Positions 1,733 through 60,410 of a DNA stretch of 64,000 nt are shown here, piece after piece. The stretch is from contig OZ024740.1 in NCBI GenBank assembly GCA_964016885.1, positions 81,406,001 to 81,470,000 on the forward strand, given 5' to 3'. This DNA is from Eledone cirrhosa (lineage: Eukaryota). How positions within the stretch are numbered: the stretch's first letter is position 1; each line of letters starts with the position of its first letter. The notes beneath the pieces are model-generated. The model was not told where the DNA came from and made no database searches. It worked only from the letters and a program-made list of their open reading frames with translations. Position numbers and translations under genes: made by a program.

Positions 1733-3600
1733 TAGTTTTGCGAGGTTTTTTATATGAAATCGTGTGTCGAAACAAATATTGTTATACTTGGGGACGGTCA
1801 TATTTGTGTAATATTGCCAGAATTAATAACAGAACACACTCACTGTTTGGTTGGTTTTCGCTTCTCGCTTCTGTGTCTTTTATATCGGTAATCTAACTTA
1901 CTCGGTCCTCAATGTTGCCATTGACGGACCGACGGTCAAAAATAATACAGATACAATATAGACACAAACACATATATATAGTTTATCATAAATCTTTCGT
2001 TGCACATCTGCAACATCGTCAGTGGTGTTATCGTTTCCTCCTGTTGTATTATATGTCTACGCCATTTTTATTCAGTCTGTCTATATATTTATTTATTTAT
2101 TTGCTTGTTTGTTTATTTTATTTTGTCTTCTTTGCGCATGCGTTTGCGTGTGTGTAGTGTTTTTTTTGCTGTGTGATGGGTGACTAGTGTGTGTTTATGT
2201 GCTTGTTGTTATTGTGTTTGTGTATGTATTTACTTATTTATTTATTTATTTATTTTATTTTATTTACTTATTTATACTTCTCTTAGGTCAGTGTTGTTTG
2301 TTTGGGTGTTGTTGTTATTCCATTCATTCTTTCTGTTTAGTCTTAGCCTTCTAATTTCTATTTTACTGGCCTCTCTGATTTGCCTATCTGCTGGGTCATT
2401 TCTATGTTTAGATATTATTCTAATTTCTATGTTGTCTATGTTACCGTCATGTTGTTTTCTAGCATGTTCGTATAGTACTGACCCGTTTTTTCGTCCTTTT
2501 AGTTCCCCCCAGTGTTGGTCTATCCTTTCACCTATGCTACGAGCTGTCTCACCTATGTATGTTGTTGTCATGTTTCTGCAAGTACTCTCTGTACATCTTA
2601 TGCTATAGACTACGTTTCAAGTTTTACAGTTTATCCAGGGGTTTACCTTACATACGATACACTTCCTATTGGTACAGTGGGTTTTCTGAAAAGTGTAGGT
2701 TTTGCTGATCAGGGATTTTATGGTGGTTCCTGGCTTTTCTACCACCTTAATTTTTAAGTGGGTCTTTCTCAGGGCCTTTCTAAACTGGTTAGCTAATTTC
2801 CCTCCGGGGGTAGCGTCCACAAAGATGACACTCTGGTATCTCTGGTTGTCGTACCATGAGGTGGCTTTCCCTATCTTATGTCTAGCCCTATCTAAGCTAT
2901 TCCATGATTTGCTCCTGTATAATGGGCAAATTCCTTTCATGTCCAGTTCTATGAGTGTCTTATACTTCTCCATGGATCCTTCGTATACTCTAACTCTGTC
3001 TCTTTGGTTGTAGCCAGAGAACTGCACGCGGTTGATGAAGTGTTGGATGTGTCTTTCCATTTCTGTTGGGTCGCACATGCGGGACACATTCTTCATCACT
3101 CGTACGAAATCTGCGATCAGAATATTAAACTTAGCACTACTGGACACTGCTGAGTTTTTGAGTATCAGGTATTTGGAGGCCATGGGTTTAACATAGTTTG
3201 AGTGGAGAATTTGGGCTCTCTCGTCTATAGTGTTAATCCAGAGTTCTGTGTCTAATACAGGTAGTCTATTGTTAGGGTGTTTGGAAGGGGAGTCGATAGT
3301 TACAGTTATACTCTGGTGTATGGAATTAGCTATCTGCTGGATGCTTTCCATCGTGCTACGTTCTAAATCAAACTTGTTAGTGCTTTCTTGTGGGGATGTT
3401 CTTATAACTATATTGATATCGTCTACATAACGAGAGTACATGATGAGGTGTATGGAGCTCTCATTAAGGAGATCTTTAAGTCTCCTTTCCCACCATACCA
3501 TGAAAAGGTTGGCAACATCACCAGCTATGCTGACGCCAATGGCTGCTCCCTCATTTTGGGTGTAGATCTTCTCGTTGAACTTAAATATGTGGCCCTTTAG
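1733..3600 (-). mobile_element. 5'-truncated Penelope-like retroelement (RT + GIY-YIG), possibly Naiad-like, with pLTR
   Basis: ORF 2617-3501 has YSRYVDD, LPVLD, VKPMAS and a Cys cluster; ORF 2272-2571 has YIGETARS...REA; one in-frame stop; HHR in the 3' region. Confidence 0.93.
1984..2027 (-). ncRNA. pLTR hammerhead ribozyme (weak stem I)
   Basis: Minus strand cacca-CTGACGA-t-gttgca gatg tgcaac-GAAA-gatt-TA-tgata. Confidence 0.7.
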
Positions 3601-3602
3601 AG

Positions 3603-3667
3603 TAGTGCATTACTGGTACTTTATTTTATCGACCCCGTAAGGATGAAAGGCAAAGTCAACCTCGGCA
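3603..3667 (-). mobile_element. SINE fragment
   Basis: Matches the gcctttcatccttacggggtcgataaaataaagtaccagt body of the copy at 10414. Confidence 0.8.
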
Positions 3668-9849: not shown

Positions 9850-10200
9850 GGCTGGCAGAACAGAGGGAAAGAGACAGAAGCAGGAGAGATCATAAATCGG
9901 ATGGTCGGAGAGCTGAGCGCCTGGCGGAACAGAGGGAAAGGGACAGAAGCAGGAGAGATCATGAATTGGATGGTCAGAGAGCTTAACGTCTGGCGGAATA
10001 GAGGGAAAGAGACAGAAGCAGGAGAGATCATGAATCGGATGGTCAGAGAGCTTAACGTCTGGCGGAATAGAGGGAAAGAGACAGAAGCAGGAGAGATCAG
10101 GAATCGGATGATCGGAGAACTGAACGTCTGGCGAAACAAAGGGAAAGAGACAGAAGCAGGAGAGATCATGAATCGGATGGTCCCAGAGCTGAACGTCTTT
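9850..10200 (+). repeat. 60 bp coding minisatellite (about 5.5 units) in the Helitron N-terminus
   Basis: Unit encodes RLAEQRERDRSRRDHESDGQ-like charged repeats. Confidence 0.85.
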
Positions 10201-10599: not shown

Positions 10600-13500
10600 A
10601 CAAAACAGCGCCGAACTTCAAGCAAAAGCAGGGCGCATTGTGTTGAAAGAAAAAGGCAAATAATGTCAGAGTCCAATCGGTTCTATGACAGTTTGCAGTA
10701 TGTTCTCTTTTTTTCCTTTTGGCGATGACGGATGGCATCCTGAGCTGTTAATGAGCAACAACAAGAAGTTGACGCCAATACGCTACTATGCCTATCGAAT
10801 AAGGAACCATGAGAATGAATTCAACCAACTTCTCAGAGGCGGTCGTTTATTTCAGCAATATTTGGTTGACATGGCTGCGAAGATTGAAGGAGATAGACTG
10901 CAATACATGCGAATGAATCAAACATCATTGCGATCTACAACGCATACAACGCATTGAATGATGATGACGATTTTTGCAATATTGGCAGGCGAATCATACT
11001 CTCTTCCACATTTGTCGGTGGACCGAGATATATGCTGGAGCGATGCCAGGATGCCATGATGTACATACGGAAGTACAGCAATCCTTCGTTCTTCATCACA
11101 ATGACATGCAATCTAAATTGGCCCGAAATCCGGCAAAACCTATTCCTGAATCAGAAGCCACATGACAGGCCAGATTTAATTGCCAGAGTATTTGACCTGA
11201 AGCGGAAACTGTTAAGAAAGTATGTAACTGGAGTAGATGGCCTATTTGGCAAGTGCATTCCTTAAGTATTGACAGTCGAATATCAAAAGCGAGGTCTTCC
11301 TCATGTCCACTGTTTGCTATGGCTCAATGAAGCCTCCAAGCCCAGACCGCAGGAATATGATAAATTTGTTCAAGCCGAAATACCAGATCCAAACAAAGAT
11401 CCAGAGGGTTATGTATTGGTGCTGAAGCACATGATCCACGGTCCGAATTGCTCTAACAATTCGCCGTGTTGGAAAGATGGAACGTGCAGTAAGCGGTTCC
11501 CTAAGCCTTTCAATGAATATACATTGTGTGGAGAGGATTCTTATCCTGTGTACAGAAGACGGTCTCCAGGAATGGGAGGATTTGAGGGCCACCAAGAAAG
11601 AAGGGGAAGCCGAAATATAACTTCGGAATGGGTGGTTCCCTACAATATGAAACTATTAAAACTGTTGAACTGCCACCTAAACGTAGAGATGTGCTCCTCC
11701 GTGAAATCGATCAAATACGTTATCGAATATACCATGAAGGGCAGTGATCAGGCAATGTTTGAAGTGAACAGGAAACATGAGATAATACAGTATTTAACAG
11801 GAAGATATATCGGTCCTTCAGAAGCTGTTGCCTTGGTACTTGGATTTCCAATTCATGAGAGAGAACCGGCCGTAGTTCACCTTCAAGTTCATCCACCCGA
11901 GGAAAATCAAATCTGCTTTCCGGTCAATGCTGCTGTTAAAGTAAACAATAACATGGCTAAGACGACTCTGGCTGGATCTTTGCGATCGCGATCCGTTTGC
12001 AAAAATATTGTATTTCACCACTGGCCAAAGTTTTACACTTGGAGTAATAAGAGATGGGAATGGAGAAAGGTGGGGAAAACAGTTGAGCAGTATCCAGGGA
12101 TTTTTGAGGCAAACGTTTTGGGACGAGTATACATTGTTTCTCCACGAAGAGGGGACCTGTATTATTTAAGACTCCTTCTGCATCACGTCAAAGGGCCAGT
12201 ATCCTTCAACTCTTTGAAAATGTGTGATGGAGAACTCCTGCTATTATCCAAAGTCATCTGCAGAGAGAAAGGTTTGCTTCAATCGGATGATCATTGGCAG
12301 CAGACTCTGGAAGATGCTGAGCGAACAAGGCTTCCCAAAGCCATGAGAGATCTATTCATCGTGCTCCTCACAAATACGGAAATTGACAATTCCAGTACTT
12401 TATGGGTTCGATTTAAGCATTCGCAGTCTGAGGATTACCATCAAATAGAAAAAAGGGCTACCAGAAACTCTAACCTTTTGATTAGCGAGAGACATTATGA
12501 TCAATGTCTTCTGTATTTTGAAGACAAACTTAACGACCTAGGCAAAAGTCTTAATGATTTTAACTTGCCAAGGCCAAATAATATTGTTGCTAATCAGGAT
12601 ATTGGCAATTTGGACTTATTGCATGAATTGCAATACAGCAGAGAAGAGCAGCGACGATTTGTAGAAGAGATGGAACCTCTATTGAATAATGAACAAAAAC
12701 ACGTGTACGACTTGGTTTGTAACAGTTTAGGGACGGACACATCTGCATTGATTTTCATTGACGCTCCAGGTGGGACAGGAAAGACATTCCTGATTATCTT
12801 AATTCTTTCAAAAGTCAGGGGAAACGGCGATGTGGCTATTGCTGTTGCGTCATCTGGCATTGCCGCAACACTGATGTCTGGGGTAAGAATAGCGCATTCT
12901 AAGTTCAAAATACCGATAGTAGTGAAAGAAAATGATCTGTGCAACATTCTTTCAAATTTTTGCAAATAGAACCAGCTTTTCATTAATATTGTAACTTCTT
13001 AAGCAGAAAAACCTTTCAGAGCAAACAGTCAAGCATCCATAGAGATATAGAAAAAAGAATTTTGAAGTTGAGTGATTAGATAGCTATTACTGAAAAATGA
13101 GTTGAACATTTTCTTTGTGAAAATACTTGTGAATAATACAGTGAAAAGACAGTTTTCGCGTAAATCGGACCATGGGTTCCCGAGATGCGCGGTTTCTTTT
13201 CGGGTACCTCTATAAAGAACCAAATCAGCGCATAATGGGAAAATACTTTGAAAGTAAGGTACCATTGAAATGTGAATACAAACGCAGATAGTGTTTGTGA
13301 GAGAGGGAGAGAGCTGGTGGTGTAGTTGATTGAAATTCTGACAGGTGACTTCAAAGAATCGAATACAGAATTACTGTATCTAGCTTGAATTTGGTGACTG
13401 AATTATTAAGTTATATGTATCTTATAACTTGTGTTAGGATAGGATGTATGTGTGTGTGTGTGACCAGTGTATATAGGGCACAGACACCCACACACACAAA

Positions 13501-21507: not shown

Positions 21508-21549
<42 letters not shown>

Positions 21550-21676
21550 TGTATATATAGTGTATTTTGCAATACACTGTATGCTTAATTAAAAGCATTT
21601 CGAAGACCTTACGCTATTGTTTTAGAATAGTGACAGTCTCACTTACTTTATATTTTCAGCAAACAGGGGGAGATAA

Positions 21677-21721
21677 AGCTGACAGAGCTATGTTTCGTAC
21701 TTTTTGGTACTTATCAAAGCT
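21677..21721 (-). ncRNA. Hammerhead ribozyme, U3-A8 core
   Basis: Minus strand agct-TTGATAA-gtac caaaaa gtac-GAAAC-atagctct-GTC-agct. Confidence 0.82.
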
Positions 21722-22000
21722 AAGTACTGCACCTGTTTGCTGAACATCATGAATGTTTGACTCTTATAGAATTCTCTAAAACAATAGCGTAAGGTCTTCC
21801 AAATGCTTTTTATTAAGCATACAGTGTATTGCAAAATACACTATATATACATTCATATATATATAGCTATTTCAGAGCACCAATTCTAATTTTCAATTTC
21901 TGCTTGACCGGCAACCGCTCTGTATAATCAGTTCCTGATTATTACTAGAATTCTATAAGAATCAAACATTGATGATTTTCAGCAGACAGGTGGAGTACTT

Positions 22001-22045
22001 AGCTTTGATAAGTACCAAAAAGTACGAACCAGAGCTCTGTCAGCT
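22001..22045 (+). ncRNA. Hammerhead ribozyme, U3-A8 core (GAAA changed to GAAC in this copy)
   Basis: agct-TTGATAA-gtac caaaaa gtac-GAACC-agagctct-GTC-agct. Confidence 0.7.
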
Positions 22046-22211
22046 TTATCTCCCCTGTTTGCTGAATATTTAAAGTAAGTGAGACTGTCACTACACTAAA
22101 ACAATAGCGTAAGGTCTTCGAAATGCTTTTAATTAAGCATACAGTGTATTGCAAAATACACTATATATACATTCATATATATATCGCTATTTCAGAGCAC
22201 CAATTCTAATT

Positions 22212-22243
<32 letters not shown>

Positions 22244-22861: not shown

Positions 22862-24817
22862 TTTCGTTTCTGAATTTGTTTAGCAAGATTCTTTATCTGA
22901 AATCGTGTGTTGAAACCGATATTGTTATACTTTGGGAGAGTCATGTTGCCAATAAGAAACACACGCACCATTGCTTTCACTTCAATTTATTATATATTTA
23001 TAAATGTATAAATTTATAAATTTCTGGTTGGTTGGTTGGTTCCACAACCAGGTAGTTGTTTATATATAGTCATAGTTCTTTCGTCACACACTATGTGACC
23101 TCTTCAGTGAGTAGGGATTCCTTTCTTTGTTTCTGTGCCTCTCCTTTGTTCTGTCCTACGCCATTTTGTTTCTGTGTGTGTGTTGTGTGCTCAGTCTGCG
23201 CATGCGCCACATCCGGGTGTCTGTGTGTGTTTATGTTCATTTATTTATTTGTTTATTTACATGTTACTGGTTGGTTGTTTGTTCTATGTGTGTGTGTGTT
23301 TTCATTTTGTCCTTAATTGTAAGTTGTGAAGTTGCAGTTCCACTCATATTTTCTATTTAGTTTTGGTTGTAATTCTTTTATGTTTATTGCCTCTGTAATT
23401 TGTCTAAACATTGCGTCTTTTATTTCTATGTTCTCTAATTTACCCTTGTGTTCTATCTTAGCATGTTGGTAGAGTACAGATGATTCTTTATTATCTTGAA
23501 GGTCTCACCAGTGTTCATTTATCCGTTCCCCTATACTACGAGCTGTCTCACCTATGTACACTATATTTTTGTCTCTACATTGTCCTTCAGTACATCTTAT
23601 GCTATACACTACATTTCTAGTTTTACAGTTAATATGGGGACTTATTTTACAGGTTATACATTTCTTATCTATACATGAGGGTCTTTGAAAAGGGTATGTC
23701 TTGCTAATAAGTGTTTTTACGGAGCTACCTGGTCTTTCTACTATCTTAATATTGAGTTTATGTTTATTTAGGGCCCTTCTAAATTTGTAAGCTAATTCAC
23801 CTCTAGGGGTTGTATCGATGAACATCACACTCTGGTATTTATTGCTATCATACCATGAGTTTATTCTGTTGGCCTTGTTCCTAGTTCTTTCTATTCTATT
23901 CCAAAATGTGTTCCTATACAAGGGGCAGGTCCCATTTATGTCATTATTTACCATTTTTTTCCATTTGGTTCTGGCTCCTCTATACACTCTGATTTTATCT
24001 CTCTGATTGTAGCCAGAGAACTGCATACGGTGGATGAAGTGTTGTATGTGTCTCTCTAGTTCTTCGGGGTTGCACATGCGGGACACATTTCTCATCACCC
24101 GTACCAAATCCGCAATCAGTATGTTGATTTTGGTATGGTCCGAAATGGCCGAGTTTCGGTGGATCAGATGTTTGGAAGTCATGGGTTTGGCATAATGGGA
24201 ATGGAGGAGTTGTTTTTGTTGTTAATGGTATCTAACCAGAGCTTTGTGTCTAGTACAGGTAATCGATGGTTGGGGTGTATACTTGGGTAGTCTATAGTAA
24301 CTCTAATGCTCTGGTGGATGGAGTTTGCTATTTGCTGGATGCTTTCCATTGTGTTTTTCTCTAGTTCCTGACTGTTCTCTAGTGGGGGTGTCTTAACTAC
24401 GATGTTTATATCATCTACGTAGCGGGAGTACATTATCAGGGTTAAGGGGTCTTGTAATTGTTCTTTAAGTTTAAGTTTAAGTCTACTGTCCCACCATACC
24501 ATGAATAAGTTAGCTATGTCGCCTGTAATGCTAACACCAATGGCTGCTCCTTCCTCTTGGGCATATGTTTTTCCATTAAATTTGAACATATGTTCCTTAA
24601 GGGTTAGTTTTATGCTGGCCCCTACCGCATGTGCAATCATTTTCTTCAGTTCATCGTGGTTTTCGGGTGTCCGTATGGCTCTGGTCCACCCGTTCCATCT
24701 ATCTGTGTGGGTTTTCTTGGCCATTGAGGTAATGGTAGGTGGTCTGCCTCTTGCTGGTCTTGTAGGGCACAGGTTGCTAAGGTCATATGTGTCTAGGTAA
24801 CTATTACTATAGGTAAG
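22862..24817 (-). mobile_element. Penelope-like element, left arm of the palindrome (frameshifted)
   Basis: ORFs 24179-24724 (GAAIG, YSRYVDD) and 23505-24182 (VVYSIRC, YIGETARS). Confidence 0.95.
23068..23112 (-). ncRNA. pLTR hammerhead ribozyme, left arm
   Basis: Minus strand actca-CTGAAGA-g-gtcaca tagtg tgtgac-GAAA-gaac-TA-tgact. Confidence 0.8.
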
Positions 24818-24910
24818 CTTACCTATAGCAATAGTTACCTAGACACATATGACCTTAGCAACCTGTGCCCTACAAGACCAGCAAGAGGCAGACCACCTAC
24901 CATTACCTCA

Positions 24911-26155
24911 ATGGCCAAGAAAACCCACACAGATAGATGGAACGGGTGGACCAGAGCCATACGGACACCCGAAAACCACGATGAACTGAAGAAAATCATT
25001 GCACATGCGGTAGGGGCCAGCATAATACTAACCCTTAAGGAACATATGTTCAAATTTAATGGAAAAACATATGCCCAAGAGGAAGGAGCAGCCATTGGTG
25101 TTAGCATTACAGGCGACATAGCTAACTTATTCATGGTATGGTGGGACAGTAGACTTAAACTTAAACTTAAAGAACAATTAGAAGACCCCTTAACCCTGAT
25201 AATGTACTCCCGCTACGTAGATGATATAAACATCGTAGTTAATACACCCCCACTAGAGAACAGTCAGGAACTAGAGAAAAACACAATGGAAAGCATCCAG
25301 CAAATAGCAAACTCCATCCACCAGAGCATTAGAGTTACTATAGACTACCCAAGTAAACACCCCAACCATCGATTACCTGTACTAGACACAAAGCTCTGGT
25401 TAGATACCATTAACAACAAAAAACAAATCCTCCATTCCCATTATGCCAAACCCATGACTTCCAAACATCTGATCCACCGAAACTCGGCACTTTCGGACCA
25501 TACTAAAATCAACATACTGATTGCGGATTTGGTACGGGTGATGAGAAATGTGTCCCGCATGTGCAACCCCGAAGAACTAGAGAGACACATACAACACTTC
25601 ATCCACCGTATGCAGTTCTCTGGCTACAATCAGAGAGATAAAATCAGAGTGTATAGAGGAGCCAGAACCAAATGGAAAAAAATGGTAAATAATGACATAA
25701 ATGGGACCTGCTCCTTGTATAGGAACACATTTTGGAATAGAATAGAAAGAACTAGGAACAGGGCCAACAGAATAAACTCATGGTATGATAGCAATACATA
25801 CCAGAGTGTGATGTTCATCGATACAACCCCTAGAGGTGAATTAGCTTACAAATTTAGAAGGGCCCTAAATAAACATAAACTCAATATTAAGATAGTAGAA
25901 AGACCAGGTAGTTCCGTAAAAACACTTATTAGCAAGACATACCCTTTTCAAAGACCCTCATGTATAGATAAGAAATGTATAACCTGTAAAATAAGCCCCC
26001 ATATTAACTGTAAAACTAGAAATGTAGTGTATAGCATAAGATGTACTGAAGGACAATGTAGAGACAAAAATATAGTGTACATAGGTGAGACAGCTCGTAG
26101 TGTAGGGGAACGGATAAATGAACACTGGCGAGACCTTCAAGATAATAAAGAATGA
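24911..26155 (+). CDS. Partial PLE reverse transcriptase + GIY-YIG endonuclease
   Basis: QEEGAAIGVSITGDIANLFM, YSRYVDD, LPVLD, CKTRNVVYSIRC, YIGETARS; 5'-truncated, premature TGA. Confidence 0.9.
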   Translation: MAKKTHTDRWNGWTRAIRTPENHDELKKIIAHAVGASIILTLKEHMFKFNGKTYAQEEGAAIGVSITGDIANLFMVWWDSRLKLKLKEQLEDPLTLIMYSRYVDDINIVVNTPPLENSQELEKNTMESIQQIANSIHQSIRVTIDYPSKHPNHRLPVLDTKLWLDTINNKKQILHSHYAKPMTSKHLIHRNSALSDHTKINILIADLVRVMRNVSRMCNPEELERHIQHFIHRMQFSGYNQRDKIRVYRGARTKWKKMVNNDINGTCSLYRNTFWNRIERTRNRANRINSWYDSNTYQSVMFIDTTPRGELAYKFRRALNKHKLNIKIVERPGSSVKTLISKTYPFQRPSCIDKKCITCKISPHINCKTRNVVYSIRCTEGQCRDKNIVYIGETARSVGERINEHWRDLQDNKE

Positions 26156-26540
26156 TCTGTACTCTACCAACATGCTAAGATAGAACACAAGGGTAAATTA
26201 GAGTACATAGAAATAAAAATAGAATCAACACACAGAAAAGACGCAATGTTTAGACAAATTACAGAGGCAATAAACATAAAAGAATTACAACCAAAATTAA
26301 ATAGAAAATATGAATGGAACAGCAACATCACAACTTACAATTAAGGACAAAATGAAAACACACACATAGAACAAACAACCAATCAGTAACATGTAAATAA
26401 ACAAATAAATAAATGAACATAAACACACACAGACACCCGGATGTGGCGCATGCGCAGACTGAGCACACAACACACACACAGAAACAACATGGCGTAGGAC
26501 AGAACAAAGGAGAGGCACAGAAACAAAGAAAGGAATCCCC

Positions 26541-26585
26541 AGTCACTGAAGAGGTCACAGAGTGTGTGACGAAAGAACTATGACT
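26541..26585 (+). ncRNA. pLTR minimal type I hammerhead ribozyme
   Basis: agtca-CTGAAGA-g-gtcaca gagtg tgtgac-GAAA-gaac-TA-tgact; perfect stem I, CUA cleavage triplet. Confidence 0.88.
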
Positions 26586-26965
26586 ATATATAAAGAACTA
26601 TCTGGTTGTGGAACCAACCAACCAACCAGAAATTTATAAATTTATAAATATATAATAAATTGAAGTGAACGCAACTGGTGCGTGTGTTTCTTATTGGCAA
26701 CATGACCCTCCCAAAGTATAACAATATATATATATATGTATATATATATATAAAGTATGTATACGTACATACATATATGTATACAGACGTACAGTAGCAT
26801 GTATATATATACATACATGCACACATATATATATATATATATGTACGTATGGGTTTACCAAACATTTATTATAATGCTTGGTTTCTTTGTAAACAAACAT
26901 CCGGAATTAAGCCGTACAGTGTTTAGCAACCATCGTTGCCCTTTTGTTCAACACTGACAGAGGAA

Positions 26966-29844: not shown

Positions 29845-29877
<33 letters not shown>

Positions 29878-29884
<7 letters not shown>

Positions 29885-30943
29885 GTATTTTGCAATACAC
29901 TTTATGCTTAATTAAAAGCATTTTGAAGACCGTAAGCTATTGTTTTAAAGTAGTGACAAATTCATTCACTTTGATCTCAGCAAACAGGAGAGATAAGCCG
30001 ACAAGTCTTGTTTCACTTTGGTTGAAGCTTATCAAGGCCAACTACCCCATCTGTTTACTGAGATCATTGATGTTATATTCTTATAGAAATCTAGTAAATA
30101 ATCAGGAGCTAATTATGCAGAGCGGTTGTTGGTCAGGCAGAAATTAAAAATTAGAATTGGAGCTCTGAAATAGCAATATATATATGGATGTATATATAAT
30201 GTATTTTGCAATACACTTTATGCTTAATTAAAAGCATTTTGAAGACCGTAAGCTATTGTTTTAAAGTAGTGACAAATTCACTCACTTTGATCTCAGCAAA
30301 CAGGAGAGATAAGCCGACAAGTCTTGTTTCGCTTTGGTTGAAGCTTATCAAGGCCAACTACCCCATCTGTTTACTGAGATCATTGATGTTATATTCTTAT
30401 AGAAATCTAGTAAATAATCAGGAGCTGATTATGCAGAGCGGTTGTTGGTCAGGCAGAAATTAAAAATTAGAATTGGAGCTCTGAAATAGCAATATATATA
30501 TGGATGTATATATAATGTATTTTGCAATACACTTTATGCTTAATTAAAAGCATTTTGAAGACCGTAAGCTATTGTTTTAAAGTAGTGACAAATTCACTCA
30601 CTTTGATCTCAGCAAACAGGGGAGATAAGCCGACAAGTCTTGTTTCGCTTTGGTTGAAGCTTATCAAGGCCAACTACCCCACCTGTTTACTGAGATCATC
30701 GATGTTATATTCTTATAGAAATCTAGGGGTAGTTGGCCTTGATAAGCTTCAACCAAAACGAAACAAGACTTGTCGGCTTATCTCCCCTGTTTGCTGAGAT
30801 CAAAGTGAGTGAATTTGTCATACTTTAAAACAATAGCTTACGGTCTTCAAAATGCTTTTAATTAAGCATAAAGTGCATTGCAAAATACATTATATATACA
30901 TCCATATATATATTGCTATTTCAGAGATCCAATTCTAATTTTG
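29878..30943 (-). mobile_element. Retrozyme-like array: about 2.7 tandem 316 bp units plus an inverted partial unit, inside (TA)n
   Basis: Near-identical units offset by 316 bp (29890, 30206, 30522); inversion from 30726; one HHR per unit. Confidence 0.9.
30312..30355 (-). ncRNA. Hammerhead ribozyme, U3-A8 core (copies at 29996-30039 -, 30628-30671 -, 30735-30778 +)
   Basis: Minus strand ggcc-TTGATAA-gctt caacca aagc-GAAAC-aag a ctt-GTC-ggct. Confidence 0.85.
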
Positions 30944-31029
<86 letters not shown>

Positions 31030-31583: not shown

Positions 31584-32865
31584 GTGATATTCTTTAAATT
31601 TCTAGCCATAGACATTCCTACGATATGACGTCCACAACATATTTTACGTACATCATAATTCAATGTTCCAGTTTAACAAGTTCCTATTATAGTATAACAT
31701 GTCATATAAGTTTTCTGAACGAAAGAACGTCTCTGTCGAGGAAACAAATGATTCATTATTTAATTGGTACTACATTAAATGCAACGTCAAAATCCTTTAA
31801 CTGTGAAACTTACAGAGATGTGTTATTTACTTAATCTTAAAGTTCTGCCATATATACAGGGCAGTTTTCACAACTCAACATATTTGTTTCTAAATGGCTG
31901 AATTACATTCCCTGGGGATGTTTGTTATGGAGAACAAAACGTCAGATTTCATAATGTCTGATTGCAAACATTTTTTTTAAGAATAGAGAGTTTTGAGGTT
32001 TCAATTGGTACAGGGGAAACAGTTTAGCACACCGAGCTATATAGAGTTGCAGAGTGGTTTACGGTAGGTGTACAGCTTTTCAGATATGTGTATAACTAAT
32101 ACCTTCTGATAAGTACTGTTAACAATACTAAGCATTTTAGTATTATATATATTTAGCTTTATAAATTCTTCCATATTTTGAAAAGAATCATGAAGGTTTT
32201 ATCAGAAATATTTATTGTTTTATACTTCTCAGATTTACATAAAGAATACATTCTTTGACACAAAAGACATGTTTTGCATTGTAAGTTCATATTCATTAGG
32301 TTGAGAAATCTTCACCAAGCTGCTTTCCGTAAGCTAGAAATTTGCGAATTGTTACAAGTATAGCTTCGTTTTCTGTAGGTTTGTACTCATGAGGAAAAGG
32401 TCGGAAAACTTTCATATTTATGGAACAACCTTTCCGGATGAAAATGATTTATTAGCGCGGTACTATTTCACATATCGCAAATACGAGAGATATTTGTTAA
32501 ACATTGGTAAGGTAGTAGTTTGCAAGTTCAGATAACTGAAAATCAATAACAGTATACAGGTGCGGATATATAGAGAAAGGGCTTGCCGTTTTACTATTTT
32601 GTTATAGTTTAATTCTAGCTGAGTCATGATCGGGAACTTGTCTTATCAACAACATCCCGCCCGTTGCTTGCTAGAAATAATATTTTTTGTCATAGATTAT
32701 ATCTTGATTTTATGTTATATATCTGTTTATAAAAACAAGTCTTTGCTTATTATTGTTGAAGGTTGTATAAACTGGAACATTGAGTTATGATGTACGTAAA
32801 ATATGTTGTGGACGTCATATTGTTGGAATGTCTATGACTATGGCTAGAAATTTAAAAAATATCAC
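31584..32865. mobile_element. 1.28 kb non-coding element with about 95 bp terminal inverted repeats (MITE-like)
   Basis: gtgatattctttaaatttctagcc...aatgttccagttta is inverted at 32768-32865; no clear TSD. Confidence 0.7.
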
Positions 32866-35689: not shown

Positions 35690-38150
35690 ATTAATTATTT
35701 TGCTTGAAAGTAGAGTGACATGGTTTGCTATACAATAAGCGCTTTATTCACATTGCTGACAATTGTTCTCTCTGAACTGGTAGGTCTAGAGATCGCTACT
35801 CGCCTATTTTTGCGTCAATCGATCACCATTACTTTGTTATAACCAGTCTAATCATCAGAGCATGCGAGAAGAAGGATATACACAGGCATGGCCTCTATAT
35901 ATAATAGTGGCATTAAACAATACTCAAATAAATTAGCTAGATAGTAAATAGTTAAAACAATCACAACATCAATCTAAGTAAAAAGTAGAGTATACTGATG
36001 ACTTTAGCATGTAAAACGAACTGATATGAAACAGATGTATGAAATTGACATGTGAAAGCCGTCATGGGGTAGATTATATATAGTGTAGAGATAACCGGGG
36101 GCTTGAAACAAAGGGCCATTTCCTTTACTGTAGGTTTGCTGACCGTAAGATTTATTTATTATTTGACAGATAAAATATTTTCATTGTAGTGAGGATGGTA
36201 ATTTGGTGTAAAGTGGATTCATTATTTAAGTGGTCTATATTAGATGTAGGGATGTAGGGATTGTTAGTTCGAATCATGGGGGTTGTTTAGCTTTCACAGC
36301 ATCAATAACAAATCATGCATGAATAAGACAACAATAACAACAATATAGGCAATAAGGTAATACAGAGGTTAAGAAAGCAAGGTATATATAGTGAACATGA
36401 TGAATTCTATTACGGATACATCGGGGGTGTTCATTATAACAACAGGAGGAAGGTGATATTTCAAGGACTGTGGTAGTAGTAAAATAATGTACTTATAATT
36501 AAGTTCATCAGTTGAAAATCATGAGTGCTAATGTGAGGAGGTGGTGTTGACAGCAGCCGAGAAGAGATATATTTATGGGTTGATAAGATATTTGCAGAGA
36601 TTAATGTGGTATAGAATTAAGGAGGCTATAAGTTGTTTAAAGAATATTATAGTTCCGTGGTGGTCTGTGTGAGAGTGCGGATTTCATATGTTGAATGCTA
36701 AGTTATGTTGTTTCGAATCACGGTGGCTTAAATTGTGTGAATTTAGTAGCGATCCTGTGTCTGCAGAAAATTGACCTTTCTATTTTGTTGTTGAGTAGCC
36801 TTTTATCGTTCCTAAGGATATACAGTAATTCAAGGTCGCAAAGTCTACAATAGGACATACCGAAAACCTCGACCAGTTGATATTGTAGTTGATGTTATTG
36901 TCCTTAAGTTCCCAAATATTTTTGGCGAGGGTTGTAGAACCTATTAGTGCACAGTTATTCATCGAATGTCTGTGCACATACCACCTTTTTTTAAACGTAC
37001 CCGCTGTGGATCCAATGTAATGCCAGGTGGAGTTGCCCGAGTTCACCGTACACACGTACACTAGGCTCAAATCAAGGCACCTGTTCGCCAATTGGCACCT
37101 ATCTGGTAGGTGACAATTGGAGTTTGACGTATTATTCCGTGCAGTTTCCACATTGCTGTTTTTTACACTGCTATAAGTGGGTTGTGATTCATGCCCGTTG
37201 AGGTCTTGTTGCGGCACGCTCGTATGCGTTTGCGGTTGTGATACGGTGATGTGTTTATGTTTAGAATTTGGTGCTATGTTGCGTATAGGTCGGGTGGTTT
37301 CACTAGAGGTATTTCTGTGGTTGATCTTGCGTATGTGGGATTCTATATTTGCAGCCGTAGAGTATGAGAGTATTATAGTTTTTCTATTGAGCATTGTATT
37401 ATATCTATGTGATATAGGGAAGTGCTTATCTATTAGTTTAAAAAACGTAGAAGGCAGTCTATTTTTTACAGAGGAGTTGAAGATTGGATTAAACCATAGG
37501 TATTTTCTTTCTCTAATTCTTCTATAGATTCTAAGGTTTACATTATTCGTGTTTGGACCACCTACTCTAGGTGCTATTTGCCCACCTCTATATCTAGTCC
37601 CGTTACCTTTATTTTTGTGTGAGAGGTTGGTGTCAGTGTTAATGGGTTTGTTTGAGTTGTCCTTATCCGTTATAAACTGTAGCTTTTCTTTGTGTCCGGC
37701 CTTATGTAATGCCGCGTTATAATAGTTAGCATGTTCAATTAAACATTTCTAGGTTTGAGGATAAGCGGGATATTCTAAGGGATATACTACGTGCTATGGA
37801 TCTCATTATGGATCGGGGGTGGTTTGAGTTATAACTAATGTAGGCCAGATTTTCATTATTTTTGTGGAAGGGTTCTATTAATCCCGTATTTATAATTAGT
37901 TATACGTCTAGAAAGTTTGCCTTTTTATGATTCAGTTCGTAGGTAATACTTAGGCCTATTTCTTTTTAAGAATGTTCTAATGTTTTTTCTTAATCTTTCC
38001 ATGCTCTCGTTATTTAAGTTCCTAGCTATAAGGAGTGTGTCAACTTATAAATCCCTCCTTGTAGGTTACTCAATTCTTTATGTAGGTTCTGTGCTATAAA
38101 TAACCCCACGACGTCAGTGATTTGCGCTGAATCGTTCCATCCATTCACCT
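35690..38150 (-). mobile_element. Decayed Penelope-like element of a second lineage (WFNP motif)
   Basis: Minus strand YLWFNPIFN..FFKLIDKHFP..ILSYS, LVYVCTV..YIGSTAGTFKKRW (GIY-YIG), SNHP thumb motif; frameshifts. Confidence 0.85.
35754..35862 (-). ncRNA. pLTR hammerhead ribozyme with long stem II (GAAA degenerate)
   Basis: Minus strand tgct-CTGATGA-tta-gactggt...accagtt-cagaga-GAAC-aatt-GTC-agca. Confidence 0.6.
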
Positions 38151-52411: not shown

Positions 52412-53412
52412 TATGATTAAAGAGTTCTAAACTCAAACAGTCCTTTACAATGAAATAGCTCAAAGAAAGAAGTATTTCTGAGCCGTGTAATACATGTTAA
52501 TATAAATTAATATATATGATAAACACAAATACCAACATATAAGTGTTTGTATTGTAAATGACTAAGTTAGCTAGATTGACAAATACTAATTATAATAATA
52601 CAGTTTGCCTGTCTCGATTTAAAATAATAAATCAATAAAAACAAACCATATTGGAAAATGGCCGTGGTACTTGGACAAATTTAAATTTCAAAATCCAAAC
52701 CTGTTCCGTAGATAAGTTTAAACTTCAAAATCCAAATAAGTTTCGATAAATGAAAAAGGGAAAAAATACCCTATTCAGATCTCATCAGCAAGTACCCTGA
52801 AAAATTGGTATGTTTCACTTCAAAATATTTAAGAAGACTGATCAACGCACATGGTTTCTCAGTGTCTAGATGCCGCATACTCGTGCTGCTAGAAATAACA
52901 GCCGTTTTTATGGGGCTAAAATTAGCTCGACAGAAGGAGCCGTGATACTATGAATAAAGAGTTCTAAACTCAAACAGTCCTTTACAATGAAATAGCTCAA
53001 AGAAAGAAGTATTTCTGAGCCGTGTAATACATGTTAATATAAATTAATATATATGATAAACACAAATACCAACATATAAGTGTTTGTATTGTAAAGGACT
53101 AAGTTAGCTATAATTGAAAAATACTAATTATAATAATACAGTTTGCCTGTCTCGATTTAAAATAATAAATCAATAAAAACAAATCATATTGGCAAATGGC
53201 CGTGGTACTTGAACAAATTTAAATTTCAAAATCCAAACCTGTTCCGTAGATAAGTTTAAACTTCAAAATCCAAATAAGTTTCGATAAATGAAAAAGTGAA
53301 AAAATACCCTATTTACAATTAGTATTTTTCAATCTAGCTAACTTAGTCATTTAGAATACAAACACTTATATGTTGGTATTTGTGTTTATCATATATATTA
53401 ATTTATATTAAC
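52411..53412 (-). mobile_element. Retrozyme/pLTR-like element: 1.7 tandem 537 bp units plus an inverted segment
   Basis: ctatga(t/a)taaagagttctaaactc at 52411 and 52948; 53314-53412 is an inversion of about 52497-52592. Confidence 0.82.
52666..52796 (-). ncRNA. Hammerhead ribozyme with 8 bp stem I and long stems II and III
   Basis: Minus strand ggtacttg-CTGATGA-gat..tgaa..aggg/ccct..ttca..atc-GAAAC-(about 63 nt)-GTC-caagtacc. Confidence 0.78.
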
Positions 53413-53424
53413 TTGTATATATAT

Positions 53425-55119
<1,695 letters not shown>

Positions 55120-58591: not shown

Positions 58592-60410
58592 GGTGTGTGT
58601 GTGTGTGTGTGTGTGCGTGTATGTGTGCGTGTGTATGTGAAGGGGTGTAAATATGGGCCTAGATTCCCTATCAAGTTATAAATTGGGTGTTGTGTTCTAG
58701 TCTATTATTGATTGGTGGGTGTGTTTTGTCTATAATTAGTGCTTCCTTAATTCTAAGATTGCCGAGCTTTCTTTCCTTAGTTTCTATCCTAACTGTTATG
58801 GTTTTGTCGGTGTTTTTGCATTTAACTAGGTGTTTCTTAAATGAGGAAGCGTTAGTATTGAGGTGTACTTTTATTCTTATGTGGAGTGGTCTGGTGGTGT
58901 TACCTACGTAGAAGTTGCTGCATTTGTCGCACTCTAGTCTGTATACGACGTAAGCCTGGTGCATAGGTCTGTGCCGTTGATGGGGCAGTTGGCTAGCCTG
59001 CAGCGGTTGTCATGTCTGGTGGAGTGTCTGTTGGTTAGCTGTCCGCGTAGAGAAGGTCCTGAGTGGGCCAGTTGGATATCTAGTCCCTCTCATCTGATAG
59101 CTCTGCGGATGGCTGTTGTTGTTTCGTCACTGACGTCTGGGAGCTTCAGGAAGCAAGTGTTAGTGTCTCGGGAGTGGTGTCCTCTGTTCTCTCTGGCACG
59201 GTTTGTGGTAGATGTCCTGTATCCGTTCAGTTTGAGTACTTCCAGGAAATGTGTGGTGTGTGTGTCTCGGTCTCTAGCGTCGGTGCATTTGTTCCGGATA
59301 CGTGTTAGTTCGTTCCTTATGTATCCGAACTTAGCACCGGCTGGAGGGCCGATCGGAAATGTACGAACAGGTCCCTGCTGGCGGCTTTTTTATAGAAGCA
59401 GGTGTGGATGTTGCCTTCATCTGTTACCCTGAGTTGGAATTCCAGTAGGGATAGGGATCCGCGGTCATCGGGGTGTTCCATGCTGAACTTTATACTGGCA
59501 TCCATGCTGGAGAATGTTGTGTATATTTTATCCGCCTCCTCACAGGATGATGTAAGGATGAGTATGTGATCTACATATCGGGTGAAGAAGGTATGGGAAT
59601 GGCAGGTGTTGATGGCTCGGCATTCTAGCTGGTTCATATAGGTGATGGCCAGCAGACCCGTTAGGCTGGATCCCATGGGTAATCCTGTTTTCTGTCTGTA
59701 TGTCTGGTGGTGGAAGGTGAAGTACGTTTTGTCCACTGTGAAGGACAAAAGCTGGTGTATGTCCGTCGGATGTAGGCCGTAGTAGTGGATGTCCTCTGCG
59801 ACCACGCAGTCCGTCAATAAATCGACAGCTGGATGAGTGGGGACTGTAGTGTAGAGGGAGACAACGTCGAGGCTAAAGGCGTATATATTTAGTTTAAGTT
59901 GTTGTGGCTGGAGTTGGTGTAGTCTACGTATGACTTAGTCGGAGCTACTGACATGCCCGGGAAAGGTGGAGAGTAGAGGCTTGAGGACCTGGGAGAGGAG
60001 CCAGGAAATATTGTATATGTGTGCTTCCATGCTAGAGACGATGGGTCTTATTTGTGTCTTAGTACTATTCTTGTGGGTCTTGACGAGGTGGTAGAAAGTG
60101 GGCAGTCTGCTATTTCTTGTGGTGTAGTTGAGCTTAACTTTATTTGGGAGTTGTCTTCTCCTACAGATGTCGAACCAGATGGAGTTGGTCTGTTTTTCGA
60201 TCTGGGCTGCAGTCATGTCCGGGATCTCTGTATATAGTTCATTGTCGCTTAGGTGTCAAAGGCTAGGTTGTTGTATGTGGCTTGACAGATGACGCAAACC
60301 TCTTTACCTTTATCGGATGGTAAGTAAATAAGTTCCCTATTCCGTAGGTTCTTCAGGGCGAGTTGTTGTGTCCTGGAAAGGTTTGGGGCAATCTTCTTCG
60401 GTTTCCTTAA
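58090..60410 (-). mobile_element. Penelope/Poseidon-type PLE, decayed, 5'-truncated
   Basis: LVKTHK..IRPIVSS, SLDVVSLYT, QKTGLPMGS, RYVD, VVYRLECDKC..YVGNTTRPL..IKEAL. Confidence 0.92.
58194..58229 (-). ncRNA. pLTR hammerhead ribozyme, C4 variant (stem III reduced)
   Basis: Minus strand cct-CCGAAGA-a-gagat att atctc-GAAA-at-TA-agg. Confidence 0.55.

Follow-up and report, generated by a model that had tools for sequence, protein, structure and literature searches.

Animal non-LTR retrozymes have been described as non-coding tandem arrays with units of 150–450 bp and a low GC content, in which each unit carries one type I hammerhead; they reach thousands of copies, are predicted to form self-paired circles and co-occur with Penelope-like elements (PLEs) (Cervera and de la Peña, 2020, PMC7229834; Li et al., 2026, 10.64898/2026.07.22.740005). 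Circles have been demonstrated for published retrozymes (PMC7229834), whereas those discussed below are predicted. Eight of nine Xenopus retrozyme dimers did not cleave (Li et al., 2026). The copying mechanism of retrozymes remains open according to the latter authors, who put forward PLE machinery on the grounds of co-occurrence and resemblance to pLTRs. In the main texts of both studies, where the link to PLEs is drawn from shared hammerheads, co-occurrence and pLTR homology, the terms 'U3-A8' and 'tail' do not appear, and 'inverted' appears only in one reference title.

Replacement of the C3-G8 pair of the hammerhead core by U3-A8 has already been published, for natural hammerheads in 2011 and for PLE hammerheads in 2014. 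Perreault et al. (2011, PMC3088659) described the same natural covariation in several scattered examples and stated that activity of U3-A8-type pairs in vitro had been demonstrated before. Approximately 1,300 matches to minimal U3-A8 hammerheads were reported for Schistosoma mansoni, whose Cercyon PLE hammerheads, described as minimal, heterogeneous and mostly single, combine the core swap with a PLE context and a palindromic helix III region (Cervera and de la Peña, 2014, PMC4209133). Because natural U3-A8 cores are in print, the novelty of the swap itself is low, and neither a new ribozyme class nor a new core is reported here.

A tail, inversion and a bias toward (TA)n are described traits of PLEs, which also retain introns, an intron being a pLTR trait (Craig et al., 2021, PMC8557442). 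Endonuclease-bearing, Neptune-type PLEs show 5' truncation, partial tandems, an inverted 5'-truncated arm, a tail of 30–40 bp that is often confined to one end, microsatellite targets and two starts of reverse transcription (PMC8557442; Frangieh et al., 2024, PMC11167929). For one PLE studied in vitro, two internal start sites of reverse transcription were demonstrated on both nicked strands, and hammerhead mutants did not impair insertion (Frangieh et al., 2024).

The 64-kb stretch of Eledone cirrhosa DNA analyzed here (the window) contains an array that resembles both groups of elements (Table 1). An earlier note on this DNA had reported about 2.7 near-identical, non-coding units plus an inverted partial unit. 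Tandem Repeats Finder (TRF; period 316, 2.7 copies, 98% matches) and alignment of the inverted arm (96–99% identity to the tandem units) agreed with this layout, and the longest stop-free stretch of the 316-bp unit was 87 amino acids. With one hammerhead per unit and a GC content of 34%, the unit falls within the retrozyme definition of 150–450 bp units with one hammerhead each and less than 50% GC. The two whole monomers of the array differ at 3 of 316 bases. The hammerheads, for which the earlier note had given no strand, lie on the minus strand in the tandem arm, with U3 at 30035, 30351 and 30667; that of the inverted arm is on the plus strand, with U3 at 30739. When unit positions are numbered from the base after GUC, the tandem arm ends 3' at unit position ~132–140, henceforth the 'short' site, and 5' at 222. 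The inverted arm ends 3' at a second, 'tailed' site and joins the tandem arm 5'-to-5' with 1 nt of overlap. The separate subfamily B insertion is likewise inverted, combines a short with a tailed end and carries a U3-A8 hammerhead at 21717 in which the stems have changed yet still pair.

Table 1. Features of the array, its surroundings and a related insertion in the window.
Feature	Position	Strand	Remark
(TA)n target tract, left	29847..29882	.	Overlaps short 3' end by microhomology
Tandem arm, subfamily A, 2.7 x 316 bp	29860..30726	-	TRF
Predicted monomer 1, from one cleavage site to the next	30000..30315	-	Release by cleavage predicted
Predicted monomer 2, from one cleavage site to the next	30316..30631	-	Release by cleavage predicted
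Type I hammerhead 1, U3-A8	29996..30039	-	Predicted cut 30000/29999
Type I hammerhead 2, U3-A8, family-typical	30312..30355	-	Predicted cut 30316/30315
Type I hammerhead 3, U3-A8, family-typical	30628..30671	-	Predicted cut 30632/30631
Predicted 121-nt spliceosomal intron	30481..30601	-	Donor GTGAGT (unit 31); acceptor TTTCAG (last base at unit 151); motifs only
Inverted 5'-truncated arm	30726..30942	+	Unit 268–316, then 1–169
Hammerhead 4, U3-A8, one stem II mismatch	30735..30778	+	In inverted arm
(TA)n target tract, right	30944..31026	.	Tandem-repeat scan
Older sister subfamily B insertion, separate	21537..22213	-	83–88% identity to A

The UUGAUAA hammerhead that the earlier note had placed in each unit was recovered in all four motifs of the window. 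They share stem I (GGCC/GGCU), stem II (GCUU-CAACCA-AAGC) and a helix III of ACAAG-A-CUUGU followed by GUC, with private stem II changes in two of the four: AAGU in the motif with U3 at 30035, where the change yields a G10.1-U11.1 wobble, and AAAC in the inverted arm. Comparison with the literal type I core consensus (C3 U4 G5 A6 N7 G8 A9 / G12 A13 A14 A15.1 / U16.1 H17) revealed agreement at every position except 3 and 8, and the three-helix architecture open at helix I is present. The Rfam model Hammerhead_HH9 aligned to all four motifs with 17–24 bits (best E 0.012). These scores are far below its cut-off of 52 bits, so that a standard Rfam scan overlooks the window motifs. Loop II and the helix I bulge resemble the HH9 model; together with the alignment, this resemblance identifies the motif as a full type I hammerhead rather than the minimal kind found in PLEs. 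Unlike the Cercyon motifs as described (PMC4209133), it has a 4-bp helix II, a CAANNA loop, a helix I of six positions followed by a bulge and a helix III of 4–5 bp, and occurs in homogeneous tandem units.

Monomer 2 folded as a circle gave −76 kcal/mol (z −5.9 relative to 100 shuffles), with an extended helix I contributing much of the pairing. The lowest-energy predicted fold hides the core, and the active fold of subfamily A was predicted to be ~6 kcal/mol costlier. RNA of the unit is predicted to cut itself after GUC.

On the hammerhead strand only, the unit also contains a GTRAGT donor motif at position 31 and a TTTCAG acceptor motif ending at 151, which would delimit the predicted intron of Table 1 and its repeat at 30165–30285. 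Both motifs were so placed in 13 of 2,000 shuffles, a count to be read in the light of motifs picked post hoc and a generally conserved unit body. Donor and acceptor were found in 62 and 66 of 66 copies, respectively, of subfamily A and in 8 and 12 of 12 copies of subfamily C, and no spliced copy, devoid of the intron, was encountered among the loci examined. In view of the post hoc motifs, the conserved body and the result for spliced copies, a 121-nt intron in each unit is regarded as a lead.

Core states were compared across the genome (3.0 Gb) with a 30-nt core pattern in which positions 3, 7, and 8 were left open. Exact matches numbered 629, as opposed to none for the reversed control, which excludes chance as an explanation for the motif in the window. 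A C3-G8 core pattern with at most one mismatch recovered, among these 629, a single copy, with U3-G8; the other 628 are thus U3-A8. A wider pattern, restricted to hammerheads with this helix closure and excluding many minimal C3-G8 PLE motifs, matched U3-A8 4,498 times (2,967 + 1,531; reversed controls 3 + 4), C3-G8 161 times (reversed control 8), U3-G8 43 times (17) and C3-A8 45 times (16), including one C3-A8 copy with an extra flank change; position 7 was fixed as U in one of these searches, and unrelated families made up 4 and 1 of the first 100 matches in two of them and 20 of the first 100 in the C3-G8 search. A 28-nt body motif matched 5,918 times, and the family is dispersed in thousands of copies. 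In contigs of four sequencing runs, many copies were present in X1 and depth was 2–7 in X4–X6; none of the differences listed there affected positions 3 or 8, and the low depths are not read as a sign of other hosts. These searches, which allowed U3-A8 as the earlier note had suggested, upheld its view that U3-A8 is the state of the family rather than a product of decay; the CUGAUGA genomic consensus that it had named as contrary evidence was looked for and not found. Its expectation that CUGANGA-based searches miss the ribozyme also proved correct, with the motif additionally below threshold in Rfam.

The element comprises at least eight subfamilies. A tree of 61 hammerhead-centered segments formed a ladder in the order C, B, F, E, A2, A, A3. 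Subfamilies A and A3 are the youngest, at 1.4 and 0.8% from the column majority, respectively; C, B, E, and F lie at 4–6%, and divergence does not order them. Stem II changed along the series GUAC/GUAC, GCAC/GUGC, GCAU/AUGC, GCUU/AAGC, while helix III is self-complementary in each subfamily examined. Among 27 distinct copies, 97.1% of cells were paired, as opposed to 21–41% in slid controls, and two-sided changes occurred at 6 of 13 pairs, distributed over helices I, II, and III and including the 3-8 pair; these counts come from related copies rather than independent events, and shuffle counts are therefore not probabilities. At 10 strict core positions, no change was observed over six subfamily steps, compared to 89 changes in 220 columns elsewhere (0.40 per site; p ~0.02). 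This pattern, in which stems I–III covary around an otherwise fixed core, indicates selection on the fold of the hammerhead.

Subfamily C has a C3-G7-G8 core, which was found in 80 of the first 100 C3-G8 matches listed. A first tree had suggested a change from C3-G8 to U3-A8; this direction reversed when two old, degraded copies (L114 and L058) were added. Both copies place the root outside C and B and carry U3, U7, and A8, although two further core positions of L058 show damage. By parsimony, U3-A8 thus appears, on the basis of these two copies, to be ancestral for the whole element, with C3-G8 as a change on the C branch. Canonical C3-G8 accordingly forms a small side branch, without a younger subfamily in the sample. 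The earlier note's description of a young family therefore holds for subfamily A, and not for the U3-A8 core, which appears to be ancestral rather than new there.

Insertion ends were mapped for 135 insertions, which had been located through hammerhead patterns or a best BLAST score, for the most part on contig 1, irrespective of their ends. Local duplicates were counted once, and loci that were split or cut off were omitted, namely L093, L108, L118, the long array and two pieces of L132. The 3' ends clustered at two sites ~30 nt apart, one at ~140 (89 ends at exactly 140, with a blur due to TA microhomology) and the other at 166–173. Ninety of the 135 insertions were inverted, and where both ends lay at defined sites, 73 of 78 combined a short with a tailed end (p 7e-17 against 0.5); of the remaining five, three were tailed and two short at both ends. 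The same rule was seen in all subfamily groups, C among them with 8 of 10. A (TA)4 sequence adjoined 173 of 206 defined 3' ends; the corresponding figures were 5 of 46 for 5' ends and 181 of 4,266 for background windows. Arm junctions were 5'-to-5', mostly with an overlap of 1–5 nt. More than one unit was spanned by 59 of 92 arms, with one arm per locus chosen to contain a hammerhead. Target-site duplications of more than 4 bp were limited to three weak candidates in the 135 insertions, in which (TA)n flanks would mask any duplication. The two 3' sites, the inversions and the (TA)n targets agree with the proposal in the earlier note that the family is mobilized by PLEs, and PLE-type mobilization is well supported by these observations.

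The mismatch frequency at segregating sites was 0.021 within arms, 0.024 between arms and 0.216 between loci. The units and both arms of an insertion thus share a haplotype, which points to one template per insertion. At the cleavage site, 5' ends of arms were no more frequent than expected: 2 of 116 lay within 5 nt of it, compared with an expectation of 3.7. Of eight matches to cleavage-site junctions in the whole genome, three were true. Since 5' ends are evenly spread and the cleavage site is freely crossed, the template would have been a circle or an uncut multimer rather than a cut linear monomer. The position at which the tailed arm stops, which is not close to the start of the short arm, led us to reject classical twin priming on a single linear RNA. 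In a single inverted insertion (L187:1333-1644), the arms start at unit positions 1 and 3, immediately at the predicted cut site, which is the outcome expected of a template RNA that had been cut. The longest array seen, of ~26 subfamily A units, occupies G000:C1:293635256-293643479 (L004, L135, L175).

No open reading frame (ORF) for reverse transcriptase (RT) and GIY-YIG endonuclease was found in the unit or consistently linked to it, the unit was not found as a terminal repeat of an ORF in the 135 sampled insertions, and comparison with three PLE families detected no sequence likeness to the unit. In these respects the element is unlike the endonuclease-bearing PLEs described so far (PMC8557442; PMC11167929). 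The genome also contains a very young, active PLE family, reached via locus L058, with many intact 775-amino acid RT/GIY-YIG frames. From its cysteine linker we take this family to be Neptune-type. It targets (TA)n and leaves one short and one tailed end, as seen in all seven inverted insertions readable at both ends, with four other loci out of range or unmatched; an initial impression that its inverted insertions are often tailed at both ends was traced by exact end calling to an alignment artefact. In its 4.2-kb unit, an upstream frame of ~450 amino acids, for which no Pfam match was found, overlaps the start of the 775-amino acid frame (L149:62-1408, L148:5617-7941).

Retrozyme 5' ends were joined to this family in 2 of 51 flanks (p ~0.04 against flank coverage). 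One of these loci (L058) is head-to-head, with the retrozyme arm ending short and the PLE arm bearing the tail; in the other (L048), the upstream ORF of the PLE continues in unchanged orientation into the unit. Another PLE family, of higher abundance, was likewise joined in 2 of 51 flanks (L120, L134; p ~0.39). Such junctions are few, and they are divided among families. In a different PLE family, a U3-A8 hammerhead lies downstream of a GIY-YIG-like frame (L112:1212, plus strand; L133, minus strand), which places the swap in at least three unrelated elements of the genome. An unrelated repeat with head-to-head arms (L096:1764-2104, L097:1684-1851) has its own U3-A8 hammerhead, with stem I AUAGUC/GACUAU and helix III ACAAUUGU, and possibly represents a second U3-A8 retrozyme family.

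The window itself is very rich in PLEs. A head-to-head pair of a 5'-truncated PLE at 22919-26725, with RT and GIY-YIG-like frames at 23505-26155, ends in (TA)n and carries a minimal C3-G8 hammerhead at 26546 (plus strand). Four more RT or endonuclease fragments, at 2617-3609 (minus), 36780-37748 (minus), 53347-53844 (plus) and 59317-59934 (minus), are presumably PLE-like, a label that we assign from motifs and BLAST. Broken frames with Rep and helicase-like motifs at 10897-12969 (plus) are taken by us to be, probably, a Helitron. A 73-nt inverted repeat (95%) with copies 1.1 kb apart (31603-31675 and 32768-32840) possibly represents the ends of a DNA transposon, and a 69-bp tandem repeat at 9852-10198 (five copies, 91% matches) has open frames on both strands.

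Given a dispersed family with a fixed U3-A8 pair, covarying stems, two end sites, (TA)n targets and head-to-head inversions, the array in the window is probably an insertion of a non-coding U3-A8 hammerhead element that is predicted to cut itself, likely forms a 316-nt circle and is likely copied in trans by a PLE into (TA)n. A tandem locus would be transcribed on the hammerhead strand, and its hammerheads would cut after GUC. As the best fold of the monomer hides the core, cleavage would probably be helped by formation of dimers via the self-complementary helix III. The released 316-nt monomers would then be ligated into circles. A PLE protein, probably a dimer, would nick both strands of a (TA)n tract and use the RNA as template for two cDNAs, primed at sites separated by ~30 nt. 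These cDNAs would vary in length, often exceeding one unit, and 5'-to-5' joining of the two would leave one short and one tailed end. Some long arrays may have been enlarged further in place.

Free crossing of the cleavage site suits a circle but equally an uncut multimer, so that cleavage need not occur. The element could accordingly be a non-autonomous PLE derivative copied from uncut multimers, never forming a circle, whose fold is kept for binding of a protein, as a folding element or for rare cutting. We consider this unlikely, even though it fits the DNA almost as well as a self-cutting element: 5' ends disregard the cleavage site, inactive folds are predicted to dominate, and the main substrate of an Anolis PLE was reported to be unprocessed RNA, with no reads ending at its cut site (Frangieh et al., 2024, PMC11167929). 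Sharing of one haplotype per insertion would equally follow from homogeneous source arrays, whereas locus-private variants throughout some arrays (in all units of L116, 7 of 7 and 6 of 6 pieces) are what a monomer template predicts. The catalytic positions, including G12, the 3-8 pair and GUC, are all fixed while the stems turn over; a scaffold would have no obvious need for a fixed core, nor for the paired two-base swap of subfamily C.

The behavior of the unit ends, which is exactly that of PLE ends, the predicted intron, itself a pLTR trait, and the known occurrence of U3-A8 hammerheads in PLE pLTRs (here in L112 and L133) would all suit units that are pLTRs of an autonomous PLE outside the sample, with the short copies as its 5'-truncated ends. 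We rate this as very improbable: units are invariably preceded by a further unit or by unrelated flank, none of the 135 sampled insertions, which are part of the copies in the genome, has a same-sense ORF ending into the unit, and arrays reach ~26 units. Satellite DNA with a decayed canonical hammerhead, spread at the DNA level, would account for the local expansion in some arrays (7 of 11 pieces of L069 share private changes, and 3 of 5 pieces of L012 share a deletion). This explanation is largely refuted by the counts and is barely credible, because U3-A8 is the majority and probably ancestral state and because retrotransposition is indicated by the inversions, the (TA)n targets and the contrast of fixed 3' with scattered 5' ends.

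Overall, an element of the non-LTR retrozyme type with a known but rare core is well supported. For the preferred reading, a self-cutting element copied in trans, the PLE end footprint rests here on the insertions themselves, with exact predicted priming sites, rather than on shared hammerheads, co-occurrence and pLTR homology as in the published accounts (PMC7229834; Li et al., 2026). The U3-A8 core and the predicted intron further distinguish the element from published non-LTR retrozymes as described in those accounts. In contrast to the scattered examples of Perreault et al. (2011), both core states occur here in sister subfamilies and U3-A8 is long-lived. A U3-A8 core in a retrozyme, and PLE-type ends or an intron in retrozymes, were not found in the searched literature, in which U3-A8 terms led only to the 2014 study, although earlier cases may exist in supplements or closed journals. 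Nor did the papers searched describe a U3-A8 core kept over a whole lineage together with a canonical side branch and PLE signatures at insertion ends.

Searches limited to CUGANGA or to Rfam thresholds can overlook several thousand copies in a single genome. The element offers matched natural U3-A8 and C3-G8 predicted ribozymes in one backbone, and the presence in the same genome of a very young Neptune-type PLE with intact ORFs makes trans-mobilization testable in vitro. We tentatively propose, as a specific scenario that is possible but doubtful in its entirety, a lineage that has used U3-A8 throughout and whose intron-bearing circle is copied by a dimeric Neptune-type protein priming both (TA)n strands at two fixed sites. 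If true, this would be direct genomic evidence of the movement of an animal retrozyme and would serve as a natural experiment on whether a weaker core, or a regulated one, is favored.
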